A stretch of 64,000 nucleotides of DNA from Spirochaetia bacterium (GTDB lineage Bacteria > Spirochaetota > Spirochaetia > UBA9216). Position 1 is the stretch's first letter. Every line of letters begins with the position of its first letter. A program made the position numbers and the translations under genes. The notes under the pieces were generated by a model. The model searched no databases, was not told the origin of the DNA, and was given only the letters and a program-made list of their open reading frames with translations. Of this stretch, positions 7,908-40,120 are shown piece after piece. The DNA is taken from contig OY776510.1 of NCBI GenBank assembly GCA_963675665.1, positions 4,352,001 through 4,416,000 of the forward strand. The letters are read 5' to 3'.

Positions 7908-7929
7908 TCTTGTTTTATCAGATGATCAA

Positions 7930-7958
7930 ATTATATAAATATTGATACCCAATGTCAA
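7930..7958 (-). promoter_or_regulatory. Sigma70 promoter of the lacI-family gene
   Basis: Reverse strand reads TTGACA-N17-TATAAT, a perfect consensus. Confidence 0.8.
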
Positions 7959-7974
7959 GTGGAAACGTTTTTAT
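7959..7974. promoter_or_regulatory. Secondary LacI-type operator
   Basis: GTGGAAACGTTTTTAT is an imperfect copy of the 8088-8103 palindrome and abuts the regulator's -35. Confidence 0.65.
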
Positions 7975-8052
7975 ACTAAAAACAGCAAAAAAAAGAAAAT
8001 ATTGGCAAATATTAGGCTAATAACAGGCTGTAAACAATAAAAATATTTGTTA

Positions 8053-8081
8053 TTGACAAATATCAGGGCCTACCCTATAAT
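8053..8081 (+). promoter_or_regulatory. Sigma70 promoter of the ABC/GH172 operon
   Basis: TTGACA (8053-8058), 17 nt spacer, TATAAT (8076-8081). Confidence 0.85.
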
Positions 8082-8087
8082 ATTCCA

Positions 8088-8103
8088 GTAAAAACGTTTT
8101 TAC
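8088..8103. promoter_or_regulatory. Primary LacI-type operator
   Basis: Perfect 16-bp palindrome GTAAAAACGTTTTTAC with a central CG, located at the predicted transcription start. Confidence 0.8.
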
Positions 8104-8192
8104 AAGATTCCTGTTTTACAATGGTTATATCTAAAATCACTGTAAATTTCAGACACAAAAGATTTCTATCAGGCCTTACAGAGGATTAAAAC

Positions 8193-9701: not shown

Positions 9702-9709
9702 GGCGGAGG

Positions 9710-10681
9710 ATGAGACTTGTGAAACTGAATAACCTTAAAAATATGACGAGATTATCTTCATCAGGAAGAAAATCTTTTATCCATAAACTTATACCCTTTA
9801 TAGGATTAGTACTTATTGTAATATTCTTTTCAATTCTTACGGAAGGAAGAACGCTAAGTTTCAGAAATTTAAAACTGATTCTCCTGCAGTCGGTAATCAT
9901 GATGATTGCAGGAATAGGACTCACCTTCACGATATCCCACGGAAGCCTGGATTTTTCACTCGGCGGGGTTATGATTTTAAGCGGCGCCCTGGGAGTACGC
10001 GCAGGTGAGATTTCCCCAGGATTTACTCTGCCCACCTGCATAATAATAGGCCTTACATGCAGTCTTATTGTCGTTGGGCTGCACCTGCTGTTAAAAGTTC
10101 CGGTATTTTTATCGGGAATATCAATGATGTTTTTAACCCAGGGTATTACCGGCACTCTGGCCGCACAAAGACCGCTGGCATGTCATTATTCACTGATGAC
10201 ATTTGACGAACCCATTGTTTATTACGGAACCTTGATTGTGATATTTTTCATTACATATATAATTTTTGAATTCACCAAGGTGGGTAAATATAACAAGGCA
10301 ATTGGTTCAAACCATATCGCTGCCGCTACAAGCGGAATAAAAGTAAATAAATACAAAGTTCTTGCGTTTGTTATATCGGGAATTCTGATCGGCATATGCG
10401 GCTTTCTGAGCCTTCTCCGTTCGGGAGGTGTTTCGTCATCCTCCTCCGGACTGGGTTTTGAGGTATTGATTTCGCTGGTTCTCGGAGGTGTATCAATTAC
10501 CGGAGGAGCCGGCACCAGACTCAGAGCGACAATAACAGGATGTTTGATTCTGACCATACTTTCAAACGGACTCGGTTTTTTAAGTGTGGAACCCGCTTAT
10601 ATAGGCAGTATAAAAGGTGTCATATTCCTTGCTGCAATAGCTTTAACATATGAAAGAAAAGCGGGTGAAATAGTTTTGTAA
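9710..10681 (+). CDS. Sugar ABC transporter permease
   Basis: Polytopic membrane protein with GSLDFSLG and AIGSN..AA..SGI motifs. Confidence 0.92.
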   Translation: MRLVKLNNLKNMTRLSSSGRKSFIHKLIPFIGLVLIVIFFSILTEGRTLSFRNLKLILLQSVIMMIAGIGLTFTISHGSLDFSLGGVMILSGALGVRAGEISPGFTLPTCIIIGLTCSLIVVGLHLLLKVPVFLSGISMMFLTQGITGTLAAQRPLACHYSLMTFDEPIVYYGTLIVIFFITYIIFEFTKVGKYNKAIGSNHIAAATSGIKVNKYKVLAFVISGILIGICGFLSLLRSGGVSSSSSGLGFEVLISLVLGGVSITGGAGTRLRATITGCLILTILSNGLGFLSVEPAYIGSIKGVIFLAAIALTYERKAGEIVL

Positions 10682-10733
10682 AACGTATGTTTCGTATGCG
10701 GAATATATGATTTATATACACAGGAGGAGAGAA

Positions 10734-11912
10734 ATGAAAAAAACAAAAAGGATTATCATTGCATTTGCAGCAGTCATTCTGTTGATTGGCCTGCTGGCAG
10801 GATGCATGGATAACAAGGATTCGAAAAACACAGCCGCATCATCAACCGGTGAAGCAAAGACAGTACAGTCTTCGGATCCTCCGGTCAAAAAAATTGCGGT
10901 AATCATAATGGAAACCGATGATTCCGTGATGTCGTCTGTCAAGCGTCTTCTTGATTCAGCGGCCGATGTGCTGAATGTAGAGATCACCTGGAAAACAGGC
11001 GATACCGACGGTGAAACACAGGTCAAAGCGGTAGAAAACGCTGTGGCGGCCGGTATGGACGGCATAATGATTTGGCCGCTTTCAACAGCTGTTATTCCGA
11101 AGATTCATAAAATATGCGATGACGCTGAAATCCCGATTGTGCAGTTTTTCAGGGGAATAGCTGATAAAGAATATGCAGCCCGCGCTGTAAACGAGCCTTT
11201 TTATCTTGGATATACTACCGAAGACGAAGCTCTGGCCGCGCAACTGCTTATTAAACAGCTGGCCGCAAACGGCAGCAGGAATGTATGTATTATAACAATG
11301 TTTCCCGGAGATGCCACATGTGACATCAGAAAAGCGAATTTTCTTTCAACAATGGAAGAAGAAGGCATGACCCTTCTTTCCGAATCGGTTATAACTTCAG
11401 TAGATAAAATCGATACACAAGTTATGGAAATAACAAACAATTTCCTGAGCACCTATCCTGAAATGGACGGCCTTGTGCTCTCTATCGGCAATATCGGTGT
11501 TATCGAAGCCGCCAGAAGCGTAGTCGAGAGCAGAGAAAGCGATATAAAAATAGTATCTTTCGATCATCCCGACAAAAATATCGTGGAAATGTGTGAAGGC
11601 AATTTTGTCGGTTTTGCATCAGGAGCTTACCCCGATCCGCTGTATTCGTTTATAGTAATGTATAACTTTCTGCACGGAACGCCGCTGTCGGACAAGCCCG
11701 TTGAACTTCTTACAAATTACCTTATAGTTAAAAATGCCGCTGACGCAGCAGGGTTTACCAAGTATATAAATTCTGAAACCCTTGTTTTTTCACAGGATGA
11801 AATTAAAATGATGACAAAATTCTATAACCCTGATTTCACCCTTGCTGAGTTAAAAAGGATTATAAACGATTACTCTCTCAAAGATATCGCGGCCAGAGTG
11901 AATACCAAATAG
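10734..11912 (+). CDS. Sugar ABC substrate-binding lipoprotein
   Basis: SD AGGAGG before the ATG at 10734; lipobox LLAGC; periplasmic binding protein type I features. Confidence 0.88.
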   Translation: MKKTKRIIIAFAAVILLIGLLAGCMDNKDSKNTAASSTGEAKTVQSSDPPVKKIAVIIMETDDSVMSSVKRLLDSAADVLNVEITWKTGDTDGETQVKAVENAVAAGMDGIMIWPLSTAVIPKIHKICDDAEIPIVQFFRGIADKEYAARAVNEPFYLGYTTEDEALAAQLLIKQLAANGSRNVCIITMFPGDATCDIRKANFLSTMEEEGMTLLSESVITSVDKIDTQVMEITNNFLSTYPEMDGLVLSIGNIGVIEAARSVVESRESDIKIVSFDHPDKNIVEMCEGNFVGFASGAYPDPLYSFIVMYNFLHGTPLSDKPVELLTNYLIVKNAADAAGFTKYINSETLVFSQDEIKMMTKFYNPDFTLAELKRIINDYSLKDIAARVNTK

Positions 11913-11931
11913 TATAGGCATTAAAAGATAC

Positions 11932-11957
11932 ATAGGGGACGCAAATCCGTCCCCTAT
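11932..11957 (+). other. Intercistronic stem-loop after the binding-protein gene
   Basis: ATAGGGGACG-N6-CGTCCCCTAT, with no U-tract on the coding strand. Confidence 0.6.
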
Positions 11958-11985
11958 AAAAATAATAACCGGCAAAGGTGATAAA

Positions 11986-12963
11986 ATGAACAAAGTACTT
12001 AGAGGCGCCAAAAAGATTCTGATTGCTATATCGATTCCGTGCATCCTTTTCATTCTGATTATGATAATTGTGCCTGAAAGAATTGGATTTCATGTACTGC
12101 CCAGTCTATTGCAGCAGGCTATCATTCCTGCAATACTTGCTCTCGGCGTCTGTTTCGAGATAAAGGTGGGCGTTTGGGATTTTTCCATAGGCGCAAACGT
12201 TATGGTGGCCGGAATAATCGGCGGAAATCTGTCCATGATGTTCGGGCTTGGTATTCCCGGGATGATTATAATATGCACGCTCACCGGGCTGATAATCGGC
12301 ACGCTTACCGGAGCGGTTTATACAGTATTAAAAGTTCCTTCGTTAATCGTATCAATTGGTATGATGCTGGTTCTTGAGAGTATAAGCGCTATCATTTTCA
12401 ACGGTCAGGGCGCCAACATGTCGAAGGAATTCCTGGCGGTGGGTGAATTCCCCATTAACCTGATTGTGGGCATAGCGGCATTTGTAATTGCCTATTATTT
12501 TTATAACGTCAGGAAATTCGGATACCAGCTTCGGGCTACGGGAAACGGGATAGCCGAGGCAAAGCTTAACGGAATAAATGTACATGTTGTCAGGCTGCTT
12601 GCATTCTCCACAGCCGGACTTCTGGCTGGCATCTATTCATTTATGACATTGGGAAGTTCAGGCGTTGTAAGAATTGTAACAAACATGGGCAGCATGGGAG
12701 TGGTTTTCGGCGCCATTATGTGCGTATTGATTGCTTTCGCTATCGAAAAATCCGTTAATCTTATTGTCGGAATCGTTATAGGCAGTATTACTGTTCAGAT
12801 AATCAAAATCGGAATACTGACCATAGGATTGCCGAGCGCTTTTCAACAGGTAATCATCGTAATACTGTTGCTGATATTCCTGGCAATTAATACAAAGGTT
12901 GATGATTTTAAAGGCATGATGAGAAGGTTTAAACGAAAACAGGAATTAAGCAGGCAGGCGTGA
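11986..12963 (+). CDS. Sugar ABC transporter permease (second)
   Basis: Polytopic membrane protein with GVWDFSIG and ATGNG..EAKLNGIN motifs. Confidence 0.92.
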   Translation: MNKVLRGAKKILIAISIPCILFILIMIIVPERIGFHVLPSLLQQAIIPAILALGVCFEIKVGVWDFSIGANVMVAGIIGGNLSMMFGLGIPGMIIICTLTGLIIGTLTGAVYTVLKVPSLIVSIGMMLVLESISAIIFNGQGANMSKEFLAVGEFPINLIVGIAAFVIAYYFYNVRKFGYQLRATGNGIAEAKLNGINVHVVRLLAFSTAGLLAGIYSFMTLGSSGVVRIVTNMGSMGVVFGAIMCVLIAFAIEKSVNLIVGIVIGSITVQIIKIGILTIGLPSAFQQVIIVILLLIFLAINTKVDDFKGMMRRFKRKQELSRQA

Positions 12964-13014
12964 AATCAAAATCCTGAATTTTTATTGATGCTTTAATACA
13001 TAAGGAAATAGATT

Positions 13015-14127
13015 ATGAGTTTTTTGGGAACCTCAATGAGGGATATATACCGGGAAAGAAAAGGCCGCAGAATGCGGGAATCAAGTTACGACAGATCCGG
13101 AGGCAACGCGGACTTTTATCTGATAAAACCTGTGTCCAAAGCTACTGTCTTCGATGCGGCTTCAACGGGATGCATTACGCATATCTGGGTTACAATCGGA
13201 GTGCCGGGCGGGAATCCCGTATGGGGAGCTTTTATGATGGAGCGAAAGGTTGTCATAAGAATGTTCTGGGACAATGAAACATCTCCCTCGGTTGAAGCCC
13301 CGATAGGCGACTTTTTTGGAATGGGTCACGGTATTTCCAGAAACTTTGTCTCGGCTCCGCTGACCATGTGCCCTCAGGATGGAAAAGGTTACAACTGCTA
13401 TTTCCCGATGCCATATCAAAAAGGGGCAAGAATAGAAATAGAAAATGAATCGGAAAACTCTTTAATGTTCTATTTCTATATTGATTATGAACAATATGAA
13501 GAGCCCGTCGACAGCGACCTGCGTTTTCATGCCAGATGGAAAAGAGAAATAACAAAGGGTATTGATGACAAGACAATGTCGGGAGTACAGTACCAGATGG
13601 GCGGCCGGAATCTGGATGGAGCAGCAAACTATGTAATTATGGAAGCCGAAGGTAAAGGGCATTATGTCGGATGCAATATGAATATCCACAACCTCCGTTA
13701 TACAAACCAGTTTAACTGGCCCGGAGAAGGAGACGACATGATATTCATCGACGGAGAACCCTGGCCTCCAAGACTTCATGGTACCGGAACGGAAGATTAC
13801 TTTAACACTGCTTATTGTCCCCAGCAGGAATTCAATACGCCTTACAGCGGCATAATTCTTCCGGGCGGACCGAACTGGAGCGGGAAAATTACATATTACA
13901 GGTACCACATCCAGGATCCGATAATGTTCGATAAATCAATAAAGGTGACAATTGAACATGGACATAACAATCACAGGTCAGATGACTATTCATCAACAGC
14001 CTATTGGTATCAGACCGAACCTCACATGAAATATGAACCAATAATACCGGCAGACAAAAGGTTGCCGCTTGACGATATAGTATTCGACTCTAACGAATTA
14101 GCCGATGTTTTGGGTTTGAAGGAATAA
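13015..14127 (+). CDS. Glycoside hydrolase family 172 (DUF2961), cytoplasmic
   Basis: SSYDRSGGNAD, PIGDFFG, GEGDDMIFIDGE, GTGTEDYFN, IEHGH and AYWYQ motifs; no signal peptide. Confidence 0.9.
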   Translation: MSFLGTSMRDIYRERKGRRMRESSYDRSGGNADFYLIKPVSKATVFDAASTGCITHIWVTIGVPGGNPVWGAFMMERKVVIRMFWDNETSPSVEAPIGDFFGMGHGISRNFVSAPLTMCPQDGKGYNCYFPMPYQKGARIEIENESENSLMFYFYIDYEQYEEPVDSDLRFHARWKREITKGIDDKTMSGVQYQMGGRNLDGAANYVIMEAEGKGHYVGCNMNIHNLRYTNQFNWPGEGDDMIFIDGEPWPPRLHGTGTEDYFNTAYCPQQEFNTPYSGIILPGGPNWSGKITYYRYHIQDPIMFDKSIKVTIEHGHNNHRSDDYSSTAYWYQTEPHMKYEPIIPADKRLPLDDIVFDSNELADVLGLKE

Positions 14128-14154
14128 ACGCTCATTTAATGATTAAAATAAATC

Positions 14155-14535
14155 TTAATGGCCCCGCTTCCTGCGCTTCTTTTTCTGCCGGTTCAGCTGA
14201 TATCGTTCATCAGCTCTGATTCTGTGTGTTTCGGATTTCTGCTTTTTTAATAATTTCATCTGTTGTTCAAGTGCAGCCTTGTAAACAGCCTGCGATTTAT
14301 TCCCCATTCTTTTCTCTTCTTTCGGAGAATACTGCCGTTTCAGTCTGAAATCATGAGAACCTTTCAGGAACCGCAGGTTATCATAATCCGTTAAATAAAA
14401 CCGGAGCAATTCGGCATTTCCCGGTTCGGGTCCGAATACATATCTTGCCGTCATTATTGAATCTGAGGAAATTTTTTCTACAAGCGCAATCCAGAACTGT
14501 CCGTCATACATGACAGTTGTTTTTACCGTTTCCAT
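14155..14535 (-). CDS. yjdF: YjdF family protein (DUF2992)
   Basis: TVMYDGQFWIALVE, YVFGPEP and a basic C-terminus KKKRRKRGH; preceded by a yjdF-like RNA. Confidence 0.88.
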   Translation of the reverse strand: METVKTTVMYDGQFWIALVEKISSDSIMTARYVFGPEPGNAELLRFYLTDYDNLRFLKGSHDFRLKRQYSPKEEKRMGNKSQAVYKAALEQQMKLLKKQKSETHRIRADERYQLNRQKKKRRKRGH

Positions 14536-14561
14536 ATAAGCCTCCGAACGTAACTATACGG

Positions 14562-14670
14562 AGGCAAAAACGGACATCTGGCGTGATGGATACTGAATCT
14601 ATAAGTCCGGGTTTTTCCCGAAACCTTCGATCGCCCGGACTACCTGCGGGGCCGTGTTTTTTCTTTGCCT
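14562..14670 (-). ncRNA. yjdF-type (azaaromatic) riboswitch aptamer
   Basis: Reverse strand: AGGCAAAGA-AAAAACACG...GGUAGUCCGG...UCAGUAUCC...GAUGUCCG-UUUUUGCCU. It has a closing P1 and the recalled conserved blocks of the yjdF motif, and lies directly upstream of yjdF. Confidence 0.82.
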
Positions 14671-14692
14671 GAAATTAGAGTTATATAAAATA

Positions 14693-14716
14693 TGAATAAA
14701 AACCGGTTTTTATTCA
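14693..14716. other. Perfect 24-bp palindrome downstream of the AOR stop
   Basis: TGAATAAAAACCGGTTTTTATTCA. Confidence 0.5.
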
Positions 14717-14731
14717 AGGGGCCACGGTCTT

Positions 14732-16567
14732 CTACGCAACGACTTCTTCAAGCCCAAGTTCTTTAATCTTGTCCGCAGAAACAAGTCCGTTTTCATTCCA
14801 GCCGCGGAATCTGTAGTAATCCTCAAGCATCGTACCGAAAGGCGGCAGCTCATTGGTTCCGCCGCCGCGGCGGTGAGTCAGTATTCTTTCAGGCAGGGTA
14901 TCATCCTTGCGCGAAAGTCCGATCCGCTGGTTGTAAAGGCGTTTCAGATTGAAAATACGTTCGCCTGTTTTAAGAAATTCTTCAACGGTCATACTCCACC
15001 CGGTAGAGGCATTCATATAATCAAGTGTGTGCTGAACCATCAGGCCGCCGTAACGGGCGAATTTGCATATGCAGAGGGAATCAAACAGGCACGACCAGTC
15101 CTGCATGCGCGCAACTATTGCCGCTTTCTTTGGTGAAAATCGGCCTTCCGACGCTTCTACACCCAGGTTTTCTACGTACGCTTCTTCATAATCCTGGGTA
15201 AAAGACAGATGACATGCTCCCCGGTTTGAAGTGGCGTATGCAAGCGCAAGAGAGAAATTCGCCCTCGGATCATGAGCCGGTAATTCAAGGCCTTTAACCT
15301 GCTGTGTGAAGGCTTCAGCTTCAGGACCTATCTTTTGTGAAAAACTGCGTGCGCCGTCGGCCATCATCTCACCGAGTTTTCCCTCGCGCCTGCACATCTT
15401 CTCAAGCGCCTGCAGAGCCGCCGCGCCGTTTCCGAAACAAAGTTCAATTCCATCCGTGTCGTCAAGCGTAAGAAGTCCCTTTTCAAACGATTCCATCGCA
15501 ACGGCAAGCGTGTTGCCTGCAGATATGGTATCTATACCGTAACGGTTGCATATTTCATTCTCTTTCAGAATAACATCATAATCATCTATAAGAAGGTTCG
15601 AACCCATAAGCCCCACGGTTTCGTATTCAGGCGCGGCAATCTGTTCGCCGTCGTAGGGCCCGCCCTTTGCCGTTCCCGTCTTTCCGCATGCTATCGGGCA
15701 TTTTCCACAGGCATAATTTCCGAGATTATGGGTTTTGATTGTCGTATAACCTTTAATCCTCTCTGCGCCTTCCGGCCAGTTTCCCTGATACCAGTTTTTT
15801 ATAGGCAGGTTTCCTACCTCTTCAAAGAAATCCAGGGCACATGTAGTTCCGGCTTCATGCATACCGGCAGCGTCCTCTTTCATTGATTTGTTAAGCGACT
15901 TGTTTATCTGCTTGACCCGGTCAGCATCCGCTATTTCGGGAACGGTATTCCCGGCTACAACAACAGCCTTCAGGTTTTTCGAACCCATTACCGCTCCGAG
16001 CCCGCAGCGTCCGGCCGCCCTGCCGTGTGCGCCGTCGGCGATTATTGCGGCCACCTTTATCAGGTTCTCCCCGGAGGGCCCGATACATGCAACCTCGCAG
16101 CCCTTTCCTTCGGCGACCTTCAGTTCGCGCTGGGTCATGAATGTATCTTTGCCCCAGTAAGTTCCGGCCGGTTTGATTGAGACTTCTTCGTCGCTGACTT
16201 TCAGGTAAACGGGGGCATCAGCCTTTCCGCGCACAATGATTGCATCATAACCGGTTTTCTTGAACCGGCTTCCCCATTTCCCGCCGCAGGAAGCCTCGCC
16301 GTAAATTCCGGATTGGGGCGATTTACCGACAATTTCAAAACGATCCGAATTAAACCCTGCAGTGGCCGATACTGGTCCGGTTGCCCAGATCATCACATTG
16401 TCCGGCCCCAGCGGATCGGTATCCGGACCGGTAAGATCATAAAGCATTTTAGCCCCGAATCCGCTGCCGCCTATCCAGGTCCTGGCAAATTCTTCAGTAA
16501 TATCAACTGTATCTACAGTTCCTTTCGTCAGGTCAATATCCAGATACTTTCCATGATAACCCTTCAT
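14732..16567 (-). CDS. Aldehyde:ferredoxin oxidoreductase family protein (W/Mo-pterin)
   Basis: GRCGLGAVMGSKNLKA, CGKCPIAC, PEYET, DTIS and RGACH motifs. Confidence 0.93.
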   Translation of the reverse strand: MKGYHGKYLDIDLTKGTVDTVDITEEFARTWIGGSGFGAKMLYDLTGPDTDPLGPDNVMIWATGPVSATAGFNSDRFEIVGKSPQSGIYGEASCGGKWGSRFKKTGYDAIIVRGKADAPVYLKVSDEEVSIKPAGTYWGKDTFMTQRELKVAEGKGCEVACIGPSGENLIKVAAIIADGAHGRAAGRCGLGAVMGSKNLKAVVVAGNTVPEIADADRVKQINKSLNKSMKEDAAGMHEAGTTCALDFFEEVGNLPIKNWYQGNWPEGAERIKGYTTIKTHNLGNYACGKCPIACGKTGTAKGGPYDGEQIAAPEYETVGLMGSNLLIDDYDVILKENEICNRYGIDTISAGNTLAVAMESFEKGLLTLDDTDGIELCFGNGAAALQALEKMCRREGKLGEMMADGARSFSQKIGPEAEAFTQQVKGLELPAHDPRANFSLALAYATSNRGACHLSFTQDYEEAYVENLGVEASEGRFSPKKAAIVARMQDWSCLFDSLCICKFARYGGLMVQHTLDYMNASTGWSMTVEEFLKTGERIFNLKRLYNQRIGLSRKDDTLPERILTHRRGGGTNELPPFGTMLEDYYRFRGWNENGLVSADKIKELGLEEVVA

Positions 16568-16580
16568 ATCTTTCTATCCC

Positions 16581-17510
16581 CTATTTTAAGTTTGCAGCCA
16601 GTTCGGCAATAGCTTCGGCGGTGAAACCGAACCGCTCCTTAAGATACGGAAGCGCTCCGACCTCTCCGAATTCTTCCTTTATACCGTGCGTTACAACTTT
16701 TACCGGATAATTAGCCGCAAGAAATGTTGCTACTGCCGACCCCATCCCTGTTGCCGCCTGGTGATTTTCGCAGGTCAGAATCGCTCCCGTTTTTTTCGCA
16801 TATTCAAGGACAAGATCTTCATCAATCGGTTTAACTGTGTGCATGTCGATTACAGCAGCATTAATTCCCTTTTCAGCGAGAAGCCCGGCCGCCTTCAGGG
16901 CCTCCGGAACAAGTATAAAACCCGTTGCTATAATGGTCAGATCGGTTCCGTCGCGCAGGACCTTGCCCTTTCCGAGTTCAAATGTCTCGCCGTCGTTGTA
17001 AATCCGGTTTGAATCCTTTCGGTGCAGACGAAGATATGTACAATTAGGCGATGCGGCAGCCTGCATGACAAGCGCCTTAAGCGAAATAATGTCAGAAGGT
17101 TCATAGATGATCAGATTCGGCGTATTTCTCATAATACCGAAATCTTCAAAGGTCATATGGGTTCCGCCGTTATACTGGCAGCTTATTCCGGGGTCGGTTC
17201 CGGTCAGGTTAACATTCAATCCGGAATAATTGGATGATATAAAGAACTGATCATAAATACGTCTTGACGCAAAACAGGCAAAGGTATTTGCAAAAGGAAT
17301 CTTCCCCATTGAGGAAAGCCCGGAAGCAATTCCTATCATATTGGCCTCGGCCACTCCTGTATTAATTGACTGTTCAGGAAATTCCCTGAAAAAGGCAGTC
17401 AGGCCGTCTGCTCCCATGAGATCCGCATCAAGGGCAACAATATCCCGGTTTTCTCTCGCAAGCTCCATCAGTGTTTCACAGTATACATCACGCATATCCT
17501 TGTCAGGCAT
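16581..17510 (-). CDS. Transketolase, C-terminal subunit (split TK)
   Basis: ALDADL, GVAEANM, GGTHM and DMHTVKPID motifs. Confidence 0.93.
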   Translation of the reverse strand: MPDKDMRDVYCETLMELARENRDIVALDADLMGADGLTAFFREFPEQSINTGVAEANMIGIASGLSSMGKIPFANTFACFASRRIYDQFFISSNYSGLNVNLTGTDPGISCQYNGGTHMTFEDFGIMRNTPNLIIYEPSDIISLKALVMQAAASPNCTYLRLHRKDSNRIYNDGETFELGKGKVLRDGTDLTIIATGFILVPEALKAAGLLAEKGINAAVIDMHTVKPIDEDLVLEYAKKTGAILTCENHQAATGMGSAVATFLAANYPVKVVTHGIKEEFGEVGALPYLKERFGFTAEAIAELAANLK

Positions 17511-18345
17511 AAGTCTTCTCCTTTTCCGTTAAAGCTGCAATAGCGGAGTCCCTGTCATCAGGGCTGAATGCCATGTTGTGACTCGCAAGTTTTTCTTCTG
17601 CAAAGGCAGCGCCCTTGCCCTTGATTGTATCCAGAATAATCATCGAAGGTCGTCCGGCAGCTTTTTGGGCCCGTCCGACTGCATCAACTATCAAATCTGT
17701 TCTGTGACCGTCCACTCTCTGAACATGCCAGTTGAATGCGGACCATTTTGCGCCCAGATCATCAAGATTCATTATATCTCTTGTATACCCGTCGATATTC
17801 ATCTTGTTGTAATCGGTAAATGCTATCAGGTTATCAAGACCGTAGTGGGATGCGGCCATAGCTGCTTCCCATATCTGGCCTTCATCACTTTCACCGTCTC
17901 CGATAATTGCGTAAACGTAATTATTGAATTTATTCATTCTGCAACCCAGGGCTATCCCGATAGCTGCGGAAAGCCCCTGGCCCAGGGAACCGGTGCTCAT
18001 GTCTATTCCCGGCGTCCGTTTTCTGTCGCAATGACTGGGCAGATTGGTCCCGCCCTGGTTTAATGTTGCAAGCCATTCAACCGGGAAAAAACCCTTATCG
18101 GCCAGAACAGCGTAAAGAGCAGGACCGGCATGTCCCTTTGAAAGTACAAGCCTGTCGCGATCTTCCTTTCCCGGGTTTTCCGGATCCACATTCATGCATT
18201 CATAGTACAATGCAGTAAGCACCTCAACTATCGACAATGAACCGCCTATATGGCCGATGCCGATATCTCCGATGGCCTTGATAATCATCTTCCTTATCTT
18301 CAGGGCTTTCAGTTCCATTTCCCCTGATCCTTTTTTCAGACTCAT
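17503..18345 (-). CDS. Transketolase, N-terminal TPP-binding subunit (split TK)
   Basis: GHIGGSLS, LSKGHAGP, TGSLGQG and GDGESDEGQIWE motifs. Confidence 0.95.
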   Translation of the reverse strand: MSLKKGSGEMELKALKIRKMIIKAIGDIGIGHIGGSLSIVEVLTALYYECMNVDPENPGKEDRDRLVLSKGHAGPALYAVLADKGFFPVEWLATLNQGGTNLPSHCDRKRTPGIDMSTGSLGQGLSAAIGIALGCRMNKFNNYVYAIIGDGESDEGQIWEAAMAASHYGLDNLIAFTDYNKMNIDGYTRDIMNLDDLGAKWSAFNWHVQRVDGHRTDLIVDAVGRAQKAAGRPSMIILDTIKGKGAAFAEEKLASHNMAFSPDDRDSAIAALTEKEKTYA

Positions 18346-18501
18346 AAAATTCTCCTCAACCGGATAAATTCCCGGAGTATTTTTAACAAGCTGCCGAAAT
18401 GTTAAGTAACGTGATTCCGTTATGCATAACTCATCCGGAAGTTTATTAAAGACCTCCTGAAATATCTGTCCGAAAAATATAATTCATGATATATTTTAAA
18501 T

Positions 18502-18622
18502 GGAGCCCGTTCCCGGGTCTAATCCGGTTTGCCGGGCTCCGTACAACATCGGCTGTTTCCCCGCCGCCTTTCGGCGACGTTCCGTATGGAGTAACTCCAT
18601 CAGGAGTGTTTGGGGAAACAGC
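18502..18622 (-). other. Structured intercistronic RNA (branched stem plus a second hairpin)
   Basis: An 11-bp stem (18552-18562/18612-18622) encloses two hairpins, one with a GAAA tetraloop. A second stem pairs 18502-18509 with 18533-18540. Confidence 0.55.
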
Positions 18623-18628
18623 TTTTTT

Positions 18629-19582
18629 TTAAAAAGCTGGTTTCTGTCCGGCTACATTGTCTTTTGTTATCTTTCTTGATGCCGGAATAACCTCAGGATC
18701 AACCTTTTCGCCGTTGAGAATCTTCATTGCAAGTTCAAATCCCTGGGTTCCGCATGGTTCATATGTCCAGGTTGCGGACATTTCACCGGCTGCAATCGCG
18801 TCAAGTTCTTCCTGCTGACCGTCAAGACCAATTATAATTACTTCATCAAGTCTGCCTGCATCTTTTACAGCCTGAACGGCACCGAGGGCCATTTCGCCGT
18901 TTGCAGCAAAAATAACATCAAGAGTTCCTGCAGGATTTGCCTGAAGGACATTCTGCATTACAGAAACAGCCTGTGGTCTTCTGTAATCAGCCGGCTGCTG
19001 TGCAACAACCTTTATGCCGCTCTGTTTGTCAATTACTTCATGAAAACCGCCTACTCTGTTAACAGAGGTTTCATCACCGGGAATACCTTCAATTACTACA
19101 ACATTTCCCTTTACAGAACCGTATTTTCCTTTCAGATGATCTACAACATAGTCTCCAATTTCAGTACCGATAAGGTAATTGTCCATTGAGACCATTGTAA
19201 TCGCATCGGTGCCGTGGATAGGTTTTCCTACAAACATGAAGGGAATACCCTTTTCATGAACTTTATTCAGTTCCTGCTTCAGGCCCTCTGCCTTTGCTGC
19301 CTGAACAAGAAGAATATCGATGCCCTTTGTGAGCATATCTTCAATACCTGCAACCTGCTTTACAACAGAGCCCTGTCCGTCGGTGGCAATAACCTTTACA
19401 TTCGGATAAGCTTCAGCTGCATCGAGAATCTGATCTCTCTGGGTTATCATGAACGGATGGTCCAGACTTTCCTGTGAAAGTCCGATTACGATCATGTCAT
19501 CTCCGCCTTCCTGCTGTCCTCCAGCAAAAGCCATTCCCGTAATACTGATTAACAACAGCATTACTACCAGAATTTTCTTCAT
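18629..19582 (-). CDS. Sugar ABC substrate-binding protein (RbsB-like)
   Basis: SD AAGGAGG; signal peptide ending AFAGGQQE; FAANGEMALGA and GLDG motifs. Confidence 0.92.
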   Translation of the reverse strand: MKKILVVMLLLISITGMAFAGGQQEGGDDMIVIGLSQESLDHPFMITQRDQILDAAEAYPNVKVIATDGQGSVVKQVAGIEDMLTKGIDILLVQAAKAEGLKQELNKVHEKGIPFMFVGKPIHGTDAITMVSMDNYLIGTEIGDYVVDHLKGKYGSVKGNVVVIEGIPGDETSVNRVGGFHEVIDKQSGIKVVAQQPADYRRPQAVSVMQNVLQANPAGTLDVIFAANGEMALGAVQAVKDAGRLDEVIIIGLDGQQEELDAIAAGEMSATWTYEPCGTQGFELAMKILNGEKVDPEVIPASRKITKDNVAGQKPAF

Positions 19583-19756
19583 CCAATTCCTCCTTGAAAA
19601 GAAAAACAAAAGCCGACAGCTTAAGTTCTCCTCTTTGAAGTTTTATATCAGCTACGCTGACAAAACTTCTTTAAAATCTATGGTGATCAATTAAAGAATA
19701 CGAGATCCTTTAATTGCCAATGCACAATTGCTCCTATCAGCCTGAATAAATACAGT

Positions 19757-20713
19757 TTATTTCTTTCTGTTGGACTGCATGCTCTGAGCCAGAACAGCAA
19801 TGATGATGATTGCCCCCTTTACAATTTTCTGGGTGTATCCCGGGACATTGATCAGGTTAAGAAAGTTATTAAGAATTCCTATTATTATTACGCCTATTAC
19901 GGTACCGACAACTCCGCCCCGTCCCCCGGCAAGAGAGGTCCCTCCGACAGCTACCGACGCAATTGCATCAAGTTCCATTCCGGATCCGAGATTGGCCTCG
20001 CCGACATTAAGATGATTAGCCATGATAATGCCTGCAAAGCCTGAAAGACCGGAACTGATTACATAGGCCGCCATCTTTACCCTGTCTACCCTGATTCCGG
20101 AAAGCCGGCTGCCTTCCTCGTTTCCGCCTACAGCGTAAATATAGCGGCCGAGTCTTGTCCGGTTTAATACTATGCTTGCTGCAACTGCCGTAATTGCAAA
20201 CAGAATCGTCTGAACGGGGATGGTATCAAACAGTTTGCCCTGGCCAATGAAAGAAAGTCCTTCCGGCGTACCGATAATCGGGTGGCCGTGAGAATAAGTC
20301 AGCCCTATTCCGACAACAGCGGTCATCATACCGAGCGTTGCGATAAATGCCTGGAGTTTCCCTTTTGTAACAAGTATTCCCGTTACCAGGCCGAAAATCA
20401 TGCTCAACGCCATAGCCAGAAGAAAAGCGGGAAGAGCGCCGTAGTCCTTGAACCCGGCGACAATCAGGGTTGAAAAAGCCAGTACCGAACCAACCGAAAG
20501 GTCTATTCCGCCCGTAATAATAACAAAAGTCATGCCGATGCTGATTATGCCTATTTCCGAAACCTGTCTTGTTATATTTAAAAGGTTTTCAGCTTTTAAA
20601 AAATACGGCGATACAATTGCACAAACTATAAATAAAATCACCAGAACAGCAAGCATTCCGTAGTTTTCCACGAAATGAACCCTGTTAAATTTCCCTGTTT
20701 TAATATCCGACAT
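19757..20713 (-). CDS. Sugar ABC transporter permease (RbsC-like)
   Basis: GGIDLSVG, YAVGGNEEGSRLSGI and ELDAIASVAVGG motifs; the ATG overlaps the ATPase stop. Confidence 0.94.
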   Translation of the reverse strand: MSDIKTGKFNRVHFVENYGMLAVLVILFIVCAIVSPYFLKAENLLNITRQVSEIGIISIGMTFVIITGGIDLSVGSVLAFSTLIVAGFKDYGALPAFLLAMALSMIFGLVTGILVTKGKLQAFIATLGMMTAVVGIGLTYSHGHPIIGTPEGLSFIGQGKLFDTIPVQTILFAITAVAASIVLNRTRLGRYIYAVGGNEEGSRLSGIRVDRVKMAAYVISSGLSGFAGIIMANHLNVGEANLGSGMELDAIASVAVGGTSLAGGRGGVVGTVIGVIIIGILNNFLNLINVPGYTQKIVKGAIIIIAVLAQSMQSNRKK

Positions 20714-22212
20714 TACGCCACCTCCCCTGTTGCACACTTCATAATTTTCTCCTCCGTAGCTTCGTCCGCCGTAAACTCTCCCGTAATACGGCCTGAGTGC
20801 ATTACCAGAATACGATCGCTTACCCCTATAATTTCCGGAAGCTCCGAAGAAATCATAATTATTACCTTGCCCTGATCGGCCAGTTTTCTCATCAGATTGT
20901 AAATTTCAGCCTTCGCCCCTACATCTATTCCCCTTGTAGGTTCATCCAGAATGATAACATTGCAGTCTTTGGCCAGCCATTTGGCAAGAACCACTTTCTG
21001 CTGATTTCCGCCTGATAATCCGCTGACCGGCAGATCGATGCCTGCGGAAGCAATTTTCAGAATTTTGATATACCTGTCGGCTATTTCTTTTTCCTTTTTG
21101 GGCTGAATCAGTCCGCCTTTTAAAATCGTATCAAGCACAGCCAGAGAAATATTCTTTTTTACAGACATACCCAGGATAAGCCCCTGCTGTTTACGATCTT
21201 CAGTTGCAAAACCGATACTCTTCTGAATGGCCTTCAGCGGTTCGGTAATCCTGACTTCCTTACCGTAAAGGGAAATCCGGCCGCTGTCAAAGCGGTCCGC
21301 ACCGAATACCGCGCGGGCAAGCTCAGTACGCCCGGCGCCTACCAGTCCCGAAATTCCGAGAATCTCTCCTGCATACGCCTCGAACGAAACATCTTTCAGA
21401 ACACCTTCACGCTTGATATTTCTTACGTCAAGAACCTTCGCTCCCCGTTTTGCGCTTGCGCGGGAGGGATAATACTCACCGAGGGTTCTGCCGACCATCA
21501 TTTTTATCATCCGGTCCTTATCAAGGCTGGCTACATCTTCCGTTCCAACGGTTTTTCCGTCCTTAAGAATTGTAACCCTGTCGCACACCTCAAAAATTTC
21601 TTCAAGTCTGTGCGAAATATATATTATTGTTTTTCCGTTTGCCCTGAGCTTTCGGATTGTTCCAAAAAGAAAATCTATTTCATGATCGGTAAGCGTTGCT
21701 GTCGGTTCATCCATAACAATCAGCTCGGCATTCATGGACAGGGCCTTTGCTATCTCCACCATCTGCTGCTGTGCGACACTCAGGTTTTTCACTTTTTGAC
21801 TGACATCTATATTGAGGCCCAATCCGTTCAGAAGTTTCCGGGCTTCATTCTTCATCGTTTTATAATCAATAAATTTACCGCTTACAAGCGGTTCACGACC
21901 AAGAAAAATATTCTCAACAACACTCATATAAGGAATTAGATTGAACTCCTGATAAATTATTCCGATACCGGCCTTCTGGGCGGCTATCGGATCCGGATGA
22001 TTGAATAATTGTCCCTTAAACCATATTTCACCGGAATTCGGCTGATGCGCTGCACTGAGAACTTTCATTAGTGTTGATTTTCCGGCCCCGTTTTCACCGA
22101 GCAATGCATGAACTTCACCCTGGAAACAGGAAAAAGTTACATTATCCAGAGCTTTTACACCCGGAAACGATTTTTCTATATTTTTCATCTGCAATATGAT
22201 TTGATCACTCAT
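20713..22212 (-). CDS. Sugar ABC transporter ATP-binding protein (RbsA-like)
   Basis: GENGAGKST, LSGGNQQKV and DEPTRGIDVGAK motifs. Confidence 0.95.
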   Translation of the reverse strand: MSDQIILQMKNIEKSFPGVKALDNVTFSCFQGEVHALLGENGAGKSTLMKVLSAAHQPNSGEIWFKGQLFNHPDPIAAQKAGIGIIYQEFNLIPYMSVVENIFLGREPLVSGKFIDYKTMKNEARKLLNGLGLNIDVSQKVKNLSVAQQQMVEIAKALSMNAELIVMDEPTATLTDHEIDFLFGTIRKLRANGKTIIYISHRLEEIFEVCDRVTILKDGKTVGTEDVASLDKDRMIKMMVGRTLGEYYPSRASAKRGAKVLDVRNIKREGVLKDVSFEAYAGEILGISGLVGAGRTELARAVFGADRFDSGRISLYGKEVRITEPLKAIQKSIGFATEDRKQQGLILGMSVKKNISLAVLDTILKGGLIQPKKEKEIADRYIKILKIASAGIDLPVSGLSGGNQQKVVLAKWLAKDCNVIILDEPTRGIDVGAKAEIYNLMRKLADQGKVIIMISSELPEIIGVSDRILVMHSGRITGEFTADEATEEKIMKCATGEVA

Positions 22213-22239
22213 TTGTAGTTTCTCTCCGGTTAACTATAC

Positions 22240-22256
22240 TGCAATAAACATGCCAG
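22240..22256 (-). promoter_or_regulatory. Sigma54 (-24/-12) promoter
   Basis: Reverse strand CTGGCATGTTTATTGCA matches TGGCAY-N5-TTGCW and ends 28 nt upstream of the ATPase start. Confidence 0.8.
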
Positions 22257-22385
22257 TTTAATTTATCAAAAGGATCACTGATTTAGACACACTCTAATTT
22301 CTTACACATTAACTATTTAGCATGTTTAATGAATAAACTGCAGTACTAAATCTATTAACCTTTGTTTACTCTCGTTTATTTTTTC

Positions 22386-22410
22386 TACACATCCCGCTGC
22401 AGATTGTGTA
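22386..22410. promoter_or_regulatory. Candidate enhancer (UAS) inverted repeat for a sigma54 activator
   Basis: TACACA-N13-TGTGTA, about 130-155 bp upstream of the -24 box, across an AT-rich spacer. Confidence 0.4.
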
Positions 22411-22486
22411 AAATTTAACCACAGAGATTTTTTCTGAAAATATTCCAGGACAACAGTAGACAAATTTCCGCTTTTTCTATTAATAT

Positions 22487-23374
22487 ATGACTGTCATGGA
22501 TGTTAGAACATATTTGGCGCGGATAGGAATCAATGAAATTCCCGAGGCAACTCTGGAAAATCTTAAACTGCTGCAAAGCAGACATCTTCTGACTGTACCG
22601 TTTGAAAACCTTAATATACATATGTATAATAAACTCTCTTCGGATCCCGACGAGCTTTTCGAAAAGATCGTTCTTCAGCGCCGCGGCGGCGTCTGCTACG
22701 AATTAAATTATCTGTATATGCTCCTGCTTGACGAACTGGGATACAGGACATCATTTTACGGCGGACGGGCCGGCGAGAACGGCACTTTTTTCGATCACAG
22801 TTTTCCGATAGTGGAAATAGACGGAATTCGCTATATAACCGATGTCGGATTCGGAGACAACTTTCTCTATCCCCTTGAGTTTAAACCCGATGTCCCCCAG
22901 CTGGATCCGAAAGGCATCTTTACAATAGAATATGAAGGCGGCGGATACTACACGGTATACAAGGAACTTGAAGACAAACGCTTTACCGAGTACACCTTCA
23001 CCCTTAATAAAAGAAAACTAAGTGATTTTAACGATAGAAAAATCTTCTATACGACAAATCCCGAATCTCATTTTTTCAGAAACCTAATAGTCTCAATTGA
23101 ACTCGAAAACGGCCGCATTTCCCTGAAACAATCCAAGATTCTTTTTACCGAAGGAAACGAACGGCGCTGGATCAAGGTTGAGTCGTTTTATCATTATGTC
23201 TATTTACTGTTCGAATATTTCGGAATAGTACTTACTCCGCAGGAGCGCAGAAAACTGAAAAACTCAAAATTCTGGAATAAACGCTATAACAGGAAAAAAA
23301 CCCGCGCGCTATTAATGGCAAGTTCAATTCAGCAGAATTTTTACAACCGTTTCGGGACCTTCCTGGGCGGATAA
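22487..23374 (+). CDS. Arylamine N-acetyltransferase family protein
   Basis: VPFENL; catalytic triad motifs RRGGVCYELN (Cys), FDHS (His) and DVGFG (Asp). Confidence 0.92.
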   Translation: MTVMDVRTYLARIGINEIPEATLENLKLLQSRHLLTVPFENLNIHMYNKLSSDPDELFEKIVLQRRGGVCYELNYLYMLLLDELGYRTSFYGGRAGENGTFFDHSFPIVEIDGIRYITDVGFGDNFLYPLEFKPDVPQLDPKGIFTIEYEGGGYYTVYKELEDKRFTEYTFTLNKRKLSDFNDRKIFYTTNPESHFFRNLIVSIELENGRISLKQSKILFTEGNERRWIKVESFYHYVYLLFEYFGIVLTPQERRKLKNSKFWNKRYNRKKTRALLMASSIQQNFYNRFGTFLGG

Positions 23375-39438: not shown

Positions 39439-40103
39439 CTGCTCAGCTTCTCATCAATTCGGATCCTGGAATATTTGCGCAGATACACCTGATGCATCAA
39501 CGCAGCCTCAAATCTATTAATTTTTTTTGCCCCGCCGAGGAATTCCGCCTCTATAAATGCCTTACAGCCTTTTTCAAGGACCTCACAGCATACAAAAACT
39601 TCTTCAATATCCCGGCCCACACAGATAGCGCCATGATTTGCCATAAGGGCAGCGTTTCTGCCCCGTAAAGCCTTTAACGTTGTTTTTACAATCTTTTTTG
39701 TCCCCGGCAGGGCATAATCAGCACATCTGACGGTAGGTCCGATAATTTGCGCAAGATCATCCAGGACGGGAGGGACCTCCCTGCGGGCGGCTGCGACTAC
39801 CGAAGCATTGGTACTGTGTGTATGCACAACAGCATTTATTTCCCTGCGCGACTGATAAACAGCAGCGTGCAGATTTTTTTCGCTTGACGGTTTTTTCCCG
39901 TCCCAGGTGCCGTCAATAATATTTACGATAGTAATGTCGTCGCAAGTCAGGCTGATATATTCACCTCCGGACGGAGTTATAGCCATATAGTTATCATCAA
40001 TTCTTACGCTGATATTACCCCAGGTACCGGCAGTCAGTCCTGCATCGACAAGCCTCAGTCCCGCGTCCCTGACCTTTTTTCTGGCTTCATCCCTGGTCAT
40101 CAC
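39435..40103 (-). CDS. Class II aldolase/epimerase (FucA/AraD family)
   Basis: GTWGNISVR, ITPSG, PSSE, VVHTHS and ANHG motifs. Confidence 0.92.
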   Translation of the reverse strand: MMTRDEARKKVRDAGLRLVDAGLTAGTWGNISVRIDDNYMAITPSGGEYISLTCDDITIVNIIDGTWDGKKPSSEKNLHAAVYQSRREINAVVHTHSTNASVVAAARREVPPVLDDLAQIIGPTVRCADYALPGTKKIVKTTLKALRGRNAALMANHGAICVGRDIEEVFVCCEVLEKGCKAFIEAEFLGGAKKINRFEAALMHQVYLRKYSRIRIDEKLSR

Positions 40104-40120
40104 CTTCTCCCTGATCTTTT

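Follow-up and report, generated by a model that had tools for sequence, protein, structure and literature searches.

A six-gene operon that encodes a sugar ABC transporter, a split transketolase (TK) and a tungstopterin aldehyde:ferredoxin oxidoreductase (AOR) was analyzed at positions 14732-22256 of a 64,000-nt stretch, hereafter the window, of the 5.15-Mb genome of a marine-type Spirochaetia bacterium (UBA9216; GCA_963675665.1, OY776510.1:4,352,001-4,416,000). The operon is proposed to be a sigma-54-dependent catabolic unit that degrades an imported, neutral ketose or sugar alcohol without phosphorylation of this substrate. In this proposal, a neutral and probably polyol-derived ketose would be cleaved by the TK without a kinase, and the freed aldehyde would then be oxidized with reduction of ferredoxin. 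A probability of about 0.5 is assigned to this reading, both as regards the type of unit and the chemistry.

All six open reading frames (ORFs) are located on the minus strand, and their family assignments by Pfam and NCBIfam agreed (Table 1). The genes for the N-terminal (TK-N) and C-terminal (TK-C) subunits of the TK overlap by 8 nt, the spacing between the TK-C and AOR genes is 13 nt (16568-16580), and a gap of 283 nt (18346-18628) separates the binding-protein gene from that of TK-N. The start codon of the permease gene is uncertain because of its overlap with the ATPase gene, and translation of the binding protein probably begins nine codons inside the ORF, at the ATG of MKKILVV. Searches of the window ORFs with Pfam and NCBIfam identified no kinase, isomerase or aldolase between 14155 and 23374. 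An earlier reading made from the sequence alone had described the six co-directional genes, the 13 nt between TK-C and AOR and the lack of these three enzyme types, and it was correct on each of these points. The divergent gene upstream of the operon encodes an arylamine N-acetyltransferase. On the downstream side, a yjdF (azaaromatic) riboswitch (14554-14673, minus strand; 46.5 bits, gathering score 45, E = 1.2e-6) directly precedes a DUF2992 (YjdF-family) gene (14155-14535, minus strand), which is the textbook arrangement, and this unit marks the downstream boundary of the AOR operon. A hairpin at the end of the AOR gene was dropped as evidence for an intrinsic terminator, since only a weak AT-rich structure was present (z = -0.61).

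Table 1. Positions in the window of the genes and regulatory elements of the ABC-TK-AOR operon
Feature	Positions	Strand	Basis
Candidate enhancer-binding protein site (upstream activating sequence), inverted repeat TTTTACACA-N14-TGTGTAGAA	22383..22413	-	motif search, conservation
Sigma-54 -24/-12 promoter element TGGCATGTTTATTGCA	22240..22255	-	pattern match, position kept in L014, L015, L041
CUT2-type sugar ABC transporter ATPase, two ABC_tran domains	20713..22212	-	Pfam ABC_tran 190.8 bits
ABC permease, BPD_transp_2, RbsC-like	19757..20737	-	Pfam/NCBIfam; 25-nt overlap with ATPase gene
Periplasmic binding protein, Peripla_BP_4, RbsB-like	18629..19609	-	Pfam/NCBIfam
Conserved structured intercistronic element after binding-protein gene	18502..18636	-	alignment of 4 genomes, folding
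Split transketolase N-terminal (thiamine diphosphate-binding) subunit, TK-N	17503..18345	-	Transketolase_N 175.9 bits
Split transketolase C-terminal subunit, TK-C (Transket_pyr + Transketolase_C)	16581..17510	-	99.4 and 98.7 bits
Tungstopterin aldehyde:ferredoxin oxidoreductase, AOR family	14732..16567	-	AFOR_N 238.6 + AFOR_C 401.8 bits

The six-gene block is syntenic at 75-91% amino acid identity in three relatives, which carry the labels Spirochaeta or Spirochaetales metagenome-assembled genome (MAG) and are represented by loci L014/L044 (where the contig ends inside the AOR gene), L015/L040 and L041. The 13-nt spacing is kept in the genus. Orthologues of the AOR were surveyed in 11 species genomes of the family, including the window's own, and were found at identities of at least 77% in G007, G008 (cut by a contig end) and G009. 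With the window's own genome, the ABC-TK-AOR linkage pointed out in the sequence-only reading is thus conserved in four of the six species genomes of the genus. Nothing above 43% identity to the AOR was found in G006 (100% complete), and no match was obtained at E <= 1e-100 in G010 (81% complete). Outside the genus, five orthologous binding proteins and transporters (L170-L174, 48-66% identity) were located in other phyla. The linkage recurs in one of these loci, a Clostridia MAG (L171), in which the gene order is zinc-dependent alcohol dehydrogenase (Zn-ADH), glycyl radical enzyme (GRE), activase, ATPase, permease, binding protein (60% identity), TK-N, TK-C, a 92-aa product, AOR (41%) and short-chain dehydrogenase/reductase (SDR). 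The TK of L171 is 51-55% identical to that of the window, is non-orthologous, and falls in a Firmicute clade of the tree described below. This locus is an independent case, in which the combination of TK and AOR was assembled with an orthologous binding protein and a non-orthologous TK and AOR. The transporter adjoins the genes TK-TK-SDR-ZnADH-SDR in L172, a GRE or activase together with a Zn-ADH in L173 and L174, and a histidine kinase (HK) fused to an ABC-ATPase domain, a DJ-1/PfpI protein and a Zn-ADH in L170. A Zn-ADH of the polyol/threonine-dehydrogenase family is therefore found beside the orthologous transporter in all five loci outside the genus, as it is in L015 and L041, and this recurrence is a hint of a polyol substrate. 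No kinase was found in the loci that combine TK and AOR, namely the window, a paralogous cluster of the same genome (own2, see below), L015/L040, L041 and L171.

The AOR was matched over its full length to the P. furiosus AOR 1aor (405 bits). In the alignment the CxxCxxxC motif with the distal Cys, the Glu of EYE and the His of CH were all present; the four Cys are presumably the 4Fe-4S ligands, and the Glu and His are taken to be catalytic. The protein is accordingly classified as a tungstopterin AOR-family oxidoreductase for which aldehyde oxidation with ferredoxin is predicted. The genome carries 16 AOR paralogues, this one included, and the nearest non-orthologous AORs were located in sugar or polyol clusters (own2, a copy at 4.87 Mb, G002, G003, L042 and L043). 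The copy at 4.87 Mb (59% identity) adjoins a sigma-54-driven operon of SDR, glyoxalase and sugar-isomerase-like genes, a second enhancer-binding protein (EBP) and an ABC-fused HK. The L042 AOR lies with a sugar ABC transporter and alcohol dehydrogenases; L043 likewise has a sugar ABC transporter, together with UxaE and a Zn-ADH. The AOR of a sister genus (53% identity) is located beside an iron-dependent alcohol dehydrogenase (Fe-ADH) and an SDR without a TK. The presence of 16 AOR-family genes and about 10 split TK pairs in one 5.15-Mb spirochaete genome is an unusual expansion, and in several places (~1.058-1.064, 1.632-1.642 and 4.786-4.795 Mb, for example) only a few kb separate TKs and AORs from one another or from sigma-54 activators.

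Besides the split pairs, the genome encodes one full-length, housekeeping Tkt (657 aa), and the split pair of the window is thus regarded as a specialized copy. The motif GDGESDEG...DYN is visible in the translation of TK-N, and E55 of TK-C is invariant in the alignment; we take GDG...N to be the motif for thiamine diphosphate (ThDP) and E55 to be the activating, cofactor-contacting Glu. The window TK aligned with the canonical split TK of Carboxydothermus hydrogenoformans (6yaj) with 244 bits. When TK-C was aligned with this enzyme and with human TK (4kxu), both channel Arg were found to be kept (R7 and R164), and the residues aligned with human Ser345, His416 and Asp424 were Ala34, Asp106 and Asn114, whereas 6yaj keeps S, H and D. 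In the human enzyme, Ser345, His416, Arg318 and Arg474 are presumed to bind phosphate and Asp424 to orient the acceptor. The Ser/His/Asp set of canonical TKs is therefore not present in the window TK. The Ala/Asp/Asn pattern is shared by the whole TK family recognized by G(T/S)DPG...NGGTHM; the split TKs of the canonical kind have Ser, His and Asp at these positions.

These residues bear on the strongest of the alternatives, which we nevertheless consider unlikely: that the TK is a conventional one acting on sugar phosphates, that the transporter takes up a common pentose or hexose whose kinase gene lies outside the operon, and that the AOR is merely co-located, serving aldehyde detoxification in general, or acid reduction, uncoupled from the pathway. 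Retention of the two Arg aligned with Arg318 and Arg474 would fit a phosphorylated substrate, as would the occurrence of members linked to the phosphotransferase system (PTS) in the same broad TK family; the replaced Ser, His and Asp positions, together with the separate Tkt, speak for a different role. The transporter provides arguments on both sides. The highest scores of its proteins are to models for ribose, arabinose and xylose (the best NCBIfam models for the ATPase are AraG, RbsA and XylG), but every score is under the equivalog cut-off, including those of the RbsABC set (RbsA 593 against 745, RbsC 270 against 398, RbsB 145 against 337). The best solved relative of the binding protein is the Thermoanaerobacter ribose-binding protein 2ioy (172 bits). 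At the ten positions that we take to be the ribose contacts of the E. coli ribose-binding protein, four residues are kept and six are changed (N13H, F16M, D89G, R90K, F164Y and Q235Y), so that Asp89/Arg90 are Gly/Lys; the protein is thus RbsB-like but predicted not to bind ribose. FGGY kinases are encoded elsewhere in the window and the 16 AOR paralogues occur in many contexts, both of which would be compatible with this alternative; the 13-nt spacing kept in the genus and the reassembly of a TK+AOR pair from non-orthologous parts in L171, in addition to the paralogous pair in this genome, argue for a functional link.

The wider affinities of the TK were determined with a family-alignment scan of species genomes, which yielded at least 591 relatives; context counts were taken from the best 80 loci. 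Neighbors were labelled by tblastn with our own probes from Pfam-annotated loci (>=50% query coverage, E <= 1e-6) and a greedy longest-ORF caller. Among these best 80 loci, an RpiB-type SqwI-like gene was present in 29, Fe-ADH in 14, DUF4867 (SqvD) in 13, TauE in 9, PTS EIIC in 8 and AOR in 1. The single AOR locus (L141:4732-12201, a Christensenellaceae MAG) is a different TK/AOR neighborhood, with AOR, KduI-like, glyoxalase, SqwGH-family TK, glyceraldehyde-3-phosphate dehydrogenase-like and phosphoglycerate kinase genes in a row. Pfam annotation of L016-L018, L075, L080, L093 and L101 revealed two layouts of the sulfoquinovose (SQ) transketolase pathway (sulfo-TK), one with Fe-ADH, TauE and DUF4867, and the other with GH31, ROK, RpiB, aldehyde dehydrogenase, SucCD-like ligase and a DASS carrier. 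Both match the published accounts of sulfo-TK (PMC12890257, PMC9594981, PMC11659671), where the arrangement of GH31, ROK, TK, RpiB, aldehyde dehydrogenase, ligase and DASS is the oxidative layout (PMC12890257) and SqwGH uses non-phosphorylated donors (PMC9594981). The database names of the TK relatives were all 'transketolase family protein', and none was labelled SqwH.

A FastTree phylogeny (LG+gamma) of concatenated TK-N and TK-C was computed from 103 of the 107 fetched loci and eight paralogues of this genome, the other four loci lacking a single full-length match for both chains; a second tree with L171 and L172 added had 113 rows. The clade names in these trees rest on gene context, experimentally characterized SqwGH or AptAB sequences not being among the rows. 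The window TK, L014, L015, L041 and own2 formed a clade (support 1.0) that nests in a larger one of 25 members, dominated by spirochaetes (support 0.944); an RpiB-type SqwI gene adjoins the TK in most of the remaining members. The sister of the window clade was L075/L093/L101, which have the oxidative sulfo-TK context, with support of only 0.555. The kinship with sulfoquinovose transketolases suggested in the sequence-only reading was hence recovered, in that the TK nests among TKs with SqwI, SqvD, SqwF/TauE or SqwD/KL-type neighbors. Judging by this relatedness and by the lack of kinases, the window TK would use unphosphorylated donors.

The clade of the window differs from these relatives at residues 33-37 of TK-C, which flank the position aligned with the presumed phosphate-binding Ser345 of human TK and are referred to here as the distal site. 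TKs in sulfo-TK contexts have (K/R)-A-(T/S)-G-T, a motif derived in this analysis rather than from the literature, whereas the AOR-linked clade has G-A-(D/N)-G-(L/V/I) and the window TK G-A-D-G-L. Of the 120 best database relatives, 115 were tabulated; 87 of these have K/R33, T/S35 and T37. A form in which G33 and D/N35 are combined with a hydrophobic residue 37 is seen in 15, each of which is among the 17 matches of 65-100% identity. The loss of a basic residue and two Thr, with the gain of an Asp/Asn and an aliphatic residue, argues for a substrate whose tail is neutral rather than a sulfonate or phosphate.

This difference bears on a second alternative, in which the operon is a sulfo-TK variant: a sulfonated ketose (sulfofructose, sulfoerythrulose or a relative) would be imported and cleaved, and the AOR would oxidize sulfoacetaldehyde directly to sulfoacetate, in place of the reductase SqwF or of the CoA-dependent oxidation by SqwD with SqwKL. 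We rate it as rather improbable, although the position of the TK in the tree, with the oxidative sulfoacetate variant as weakly supported sister, and the frequency of SqwI-like and SqvD genes in the family loci are what it would lead one to expect. The sulfo-TK pathway is also placed in Spirochaetes in the review literature (PMC12890257). The binding protein, in addition, loses an Asp and gains a His and a Lys at the ligand positions listed above, which would suit an anion. Apart from the TK subclade being without K/R33, T/S35 and T37, however, the remaining SQ machinery was not found. The best genome-wide score for DUF4867, the SQ isomerase, was 25.6 bits against a Pfam cut-off of 28.7; tblastn of the genome gave no match for the GH31 sulfoquinovosidase, KduI-like isomerase, TauE, DASS or CUT1 SQ-type binding protein of sulfo-TK loci; the SqwI gene is not in the operon; and an exporter was not found in any of the four genus loci. 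The associated GRE (described below) resembles glycerol dehydratase more closely than it does isethionate sulfite-lyase. The operon is probably not a sulfoquinovose operon. The sequence-only reading had favored a short or non-phosphorylatable ketose, including sulfonated ones, as the substrate; the absence of a kinase is in keeping with this, the sulfo option was weakened by the changed distal site and the missing SQ genes, and a free ketose was made less attractive than a polyol by the partner genes described below. As a whole, that interpretation was partly supported.

Transcription of the operon from a sigma-54 promoter is indicated by the element TGGCATGTTTATTGCA, situated ~28 nt ahead of the ATPase ATG. 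A loose -24/-12 pattern gave two matches in the window against 1.03 expected, which is not beyond chance by itself. The strict form TGGCAY-N5-TTGCW, however, occurs only 17 times across the genome, and the element is kept in position in three of three related genomes in spite of diverged flanks. The genome encodes an intact RpoN (462 aa, all three sigma-54 domains) and has 26 strong matches to Sigma54_activat, none of which falls within the 64-kb window. The rarity of the strict form, its kept position, the intact rpoN and the 26 EBP-type matches make TGGCATGTTTATTGCA credible as a promoter, in line with the clean -24/-12 element recognized in the sequence-only reading. The inverted repeat of Table 1 lies ~130-170 nt upstream of the promoter, was matched once in the window (0 of 100 window shuffles), and is retained in L014 and L015, with a near match in L041. 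In the form TTTTACAC-N-TGTARAA it has only two matches in the genome, one ahead of the operon and one ahead of the sigma-54 promoter of a DJ-1/PfpI gene; the latter copy is located ~240 nt upstream of the element TGGCATGATAATTGCG, beside the genes for an NtrC-type EBP and an HK. Because the repeat is common only to these two promoters, this EBP/HK pair is a candidate regulator of the ABC-TK-AOR operon, on good though indirect evidence. Neither sigma-54 nor upstream-repeat motifs were found in L170-L173, and regulation thus differs outside the genus.

The DJ-1/PfpI, HK and EBP genes belong to a partner block which in relatives adjoins the operon. In L015/L040 and L041, the opposite strand after the AOR gene carries activase, GRE and two Zn-ADH genes, which have a -24/-12 element to themselves; L015/L040 additionally have an EBP gene after the ZnADH-GRE genes. 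In this genome the orthologues (72-87% identity) are at genome positions 4,313,936-4,320,912, outside the window and 46 kb from the operon, in the order DJ-1/PfpI, HK, NtrC-type response-regulator EBP, TGGCACGTCGATTGCT, Zn-ADH, Zn-ADH, GRE and activase. The EBP gene occupies 4,313,936-4,315,252. A single regulator for all three promoters was considered and dropped, as the conserved block upstream of the ZnADH-GRE promoter differs from the repeat. The best solved relative of the GRE was the B12-independent glycerol dehydratase (713 bits), followed by diol dehydratase (666) and isethionate sulfite-lyase (494), and the feeding of sulfoacetaldehyde into an isethionate lyase was for this reason dropped as a candidate route. 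Among solved structures, the Zn-ADHs were closest to threonine, xylitol and butanediol dehydrogenases, and at 150-175 bits these relatives were not decisive for substrate identity. Taken together, the partner block points to an imported polyol as substrate rather than to a free ketose.

The HK of the partner block has an N-terminal ABC-ATPase-like domain. Such fusions were observed at three loci (genome 4,312,121-4,313,950, i.e. L186:3121-4950, minus strand; L073:924-2741; L170:1980-3842); their best matches are to the first half of sugar ABC ATPases (YtfR, LsrA), followed by HisKA/HATPase_c, and each adjoins an NtrC-type EBP or the orthologous sugar transporter. A kinase of this kind could sense transport through docking on the ABC permease.

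Whether the promoter serves all six genes depends on the gap ahead of TK-N, in which a conserved structured element was found (Table 1). It consists of a long-range stem GCUGUUUCCCC/GGGGAAACAGC around variable hairpins, followed by a hairpin GGAGCCCG...CGGGCUCC. The 295-nt fold had z = -6.6, with 0 of 200 shuffles folding equally well. Since the stem words pair only at this locus in the whole genome, a dispersed repeat of the REP (repetitive extragenic palindromic) type was ruled out, and an E-value scan of 14000-22600 gave no Rfam match for a known RNA in the 283-nt gap. The tail 3' of the hairpin is AUUUAAAAU here, which makes a poor terminator, and a U-run in L014. In L014 and L041 the TK-N start is located ~25-40 nt after the hairpin, leaving little space for a separate promoter. 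Hairpins 3' of binding-protein genes commonly set subunit ratios while the operon continues, and the element may be an attenuator or a 3' stabilizer of the mRNA that tunes the ratio of binding protein to enzymes. The least favored alternative, that the sigma-54 promoter drives the transporter genes only, with a stop at the hairpin and separate regulation of TK-N, TK-C and AOR so that the coupling is only apparent, draws on the GC-rich hairpin that ends this structure, on the U-run in L014 and on sigma-70-like hexamers in the gap (at chance frequency), and is judged improbable in view of the short hairpin-to-TK-N distance, the poor tail (no terminator on the minus strand of the gap was listed by a simple scan) and the ABC-TK-AOR order kept in four genomes and repeated in L171.

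For the proposed catabolism of a neutral polyol, the following sequence of steps is envisaged. A neutral polyol or free ketose would be imported by the RbsB-like binding protein and the ABC transporter, and a polyol would then be oxidized to a 2-ketose by one of the two Zn-ADHs of the partner block. The split TK, descended in this scheme from sulfofructose/sulfoerythrulose transketolases, would move C1-C2 of the free ketose onto glyceraldehyde-3-phosphate to give xylulose-5-phosphate, which would enter the pentose phosphate pathway. The other product would be a short hydroxy-aldehyde, for instance glycolaldehyde or glyceraldehyde. The tungsten AOR would oxidize this aldehyde, or one derived from it, to the acid and reduce ferredoxin. 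In an alternative reductive branch, a diol or glycerol would be formed from the aldehyde by the second Zn-ADH and turned into a deoxy-aldehyde by the GRE dehydratase, and AOR or an alcohol dehydrogenase would complete the route. DJ-1/PfpI would limit damage by reactive aldehydes.

Three further TK pairs of the genome, 59-73% identical to that of the window, were examined for context. The first, own2 at 2.00 Mb, comprises GntR, AOR, TK-N, TK-C and a GolD/DthD-like SDR behind a sugar-sensing set of HK, AraC-type response regulator and binding protein; its AOR, TK-N and TK-C are 79, 73 and 66% identical to those of the window. The second, own3 (genome 4,815,756-4,825,000; L071), carries on one strand Zn-ADH, a CUT2 transporter, GRE with activase, a SqwGH-like TK and SDR, and on the evidence of its genes is a second uncharacterized TK pathway. 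Its GRE was tried as a substrate clue and discarded, as it did not reach any of the NCBIfam equivalog cut-offs and its solved relatives differed little in score. In the third, own4 (genome 4,845,000-4,860,400; L072), a strict sigma-54 element at 4,860,363 is followed by glycerol dehydrogenase, Fe-ADH, Zn-ADH, SqwGH-like TK, ABM protein and CUT2 transporter genes, with glycerol kinase, SDR and another Zn-ADH downstream. Its Fe-ADH resembles lactaldehyde/glycolaldehyde reductases, and own4 looks like a reductive counterpart of the window operon; in the same scheme, the reductive branch would regenerate a C3-phosphate acceptor. In this genome TKs of this type recur amid polyol-type dehydrogenases and aldehyde-handling enzymes.

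Several observations weigh against a polyol operon of this kind. A dehydrogenase or isomerase is not encoded inside the operon. In this genome 46 kb separate it from the partner block, whose ZnADH-GRE promoter has its own conserved upstream block, unlike the repeat shared by the ABC and DJ-1 promoters. The hairpin after the binding-protein gene is conserved and has a U-run in L014, and could terminate a good share of transcripts. Changes of the S345A/H416D/D424N type also occur in the PTS-linked members of the TK family (8 of 80 loci), whose substrates are presumably phosphorylated, and these changes are therefore no proof of phosphate-independence. At large the pairing is rare, with an AOR within 9 kb of the TK in only one of the best 80 TK-family loci (L141), and the AOR of L171 is only 41% identical to that of the window.

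The nearest known system is the sulfo-TK pathway, which proceeds through SqvD, SqwGH and SqwI and then SqwF/SqwE in Clostridium sp. MSTE9 or SqwD/SqwKL in the Acholeplasma variant (PMC12890257, PMC9594981, PMC11659671). The window operon shares with it a split ThDP-dependent TK of the same clade, the lack of a substrate kinase, an ABC importer, a dedicated oxidoreductase beside the TK for the leftover aldehyde, and anaerobic spirochaete hosts. It differs in having no SQ isomerase (DUF4867), SqwI, sulfoquinovosidase or sulfonate exporter, in its CUT2 (RbsB-like) rather than CUT1 transporter, in a tungsten AOR where sulfo-TK loci have Fe-ADH or an aldehyde dehydrogenase with CoA ligase, in the distal motif GA(D/N)G(L/V/I) as against (K/R)A(T/S)GT, and in sigma-54/EBP control as against ROK-type regulators. 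The logic is thus that of sulfo-TK, i.e. kinase-free cleavage by a TK plus a dedicated aldehyde enzyme, while the parts and the distal site of the TK differ. Canonical TKs (6yaj/6yak and human 4kxu) have the same fold, the two channel-entrance Arg and the cofactor Glu, and the C. hydrogenoformans enzyme the same domain split, but they keep S, H and D in place of Ala, Asp and Asn. The AORs of P. furiosus (1aor) and of bacteria (9g7j, 8c0z) are alike in full-length match and in aligned cluster Cys and catalytic residues. The window AOR is a single catalytic subunit without adjoining AorA/AorC-type partners and, unlike the known enzymes, is embedded in a sugar-transport/transketolase operon. RbsABC and the ribose-binding proteins (2ioy, 2dri family) share the CUT2 architecture and are set apart by the sub-cut-off scores and the six changed contacts. 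In the catabolism of D-apiose, the apulose-4-phosphate transketolase AptAB is a split TK that acts on a phosphorylated ketose made by an in-cluster kinase. The window operon resembles that system in dedicating a split TK to catabolism beside an RbsB-like transporter, and lacks the kinase.

Three other blocks of the window were annotated. Positions 6894-14127 contain a LacI regulator and a second CUT2 transporter (ATPase, two permeases and a 401-aa binding protein), with the gene for a DUF2961 protein at the end, a family that we take to be GH172 (difructose-anhydride/fructofuranosidase type); the block is convergent to the AOR operon, and the adjacency is not conserved in relatives. At 37810-41584 (minus strand), FGGY kinase, class II aldolase, class III aminotransferase and major facilitator superfamily carrier genes under a TetR regulator suggest an amino-sugar or amino-polyol type cluster. 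The 691-aa protein encoded at 42447-44522 (plus strand) combines 4Fe-4S ferredoxin motifs, an Fe-only-hydrogenase large-subunit domain and a methyl-accepting chemotaxis signalling domain, and may be a redox- or H2-sensing chemoreceptor.

To our knowledge, kinase-free, TK-based cleavage of sugars is so far known only for sulfoquinovose. A search of the full-text literature, with subscription journals outside its scope, returned no account of a TK paired with an AOR, of sulfoacetaldehyde as an AOR substrate or of neutral polyols being degraded by way of a TK. In its widest form, which we advance tentatively and hold to be somewhat less probable than the assignment of the operon itself, the proposal is of an undescribed anaerobic route for neutral polyols and free ketoses, in which a TK derived from sulfosugar enzymes has been re-tooled at its distal site, the aldehyde is split between the tungsten AOR and a Zn-ADH/GRE branch, the genes form one sigma-54 regulon under an HK with an ABC-ATPase-like domain, and the same enzymes came together separately in Spirochaetota and Clostridia. 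If the subclade works on neutral ketoses, the reach of sulfo-TK logic in anoxic sediments and guts would include ordinary polyols as well as rare sugars. The G-A-D/N-G-L/V/I motif would then serve as a sequence marker and mutagenesis target for the donor specificity of TKs, which is also of interest for biocatalysis. One of the many unassigned bacterial tungsten AORs, of which this genome alone has 16, would gain a defined physiological substrate, and the aldehyde from C-C cleavage would supply low-potential electrons for hydrogen formation or reductive metabolism.

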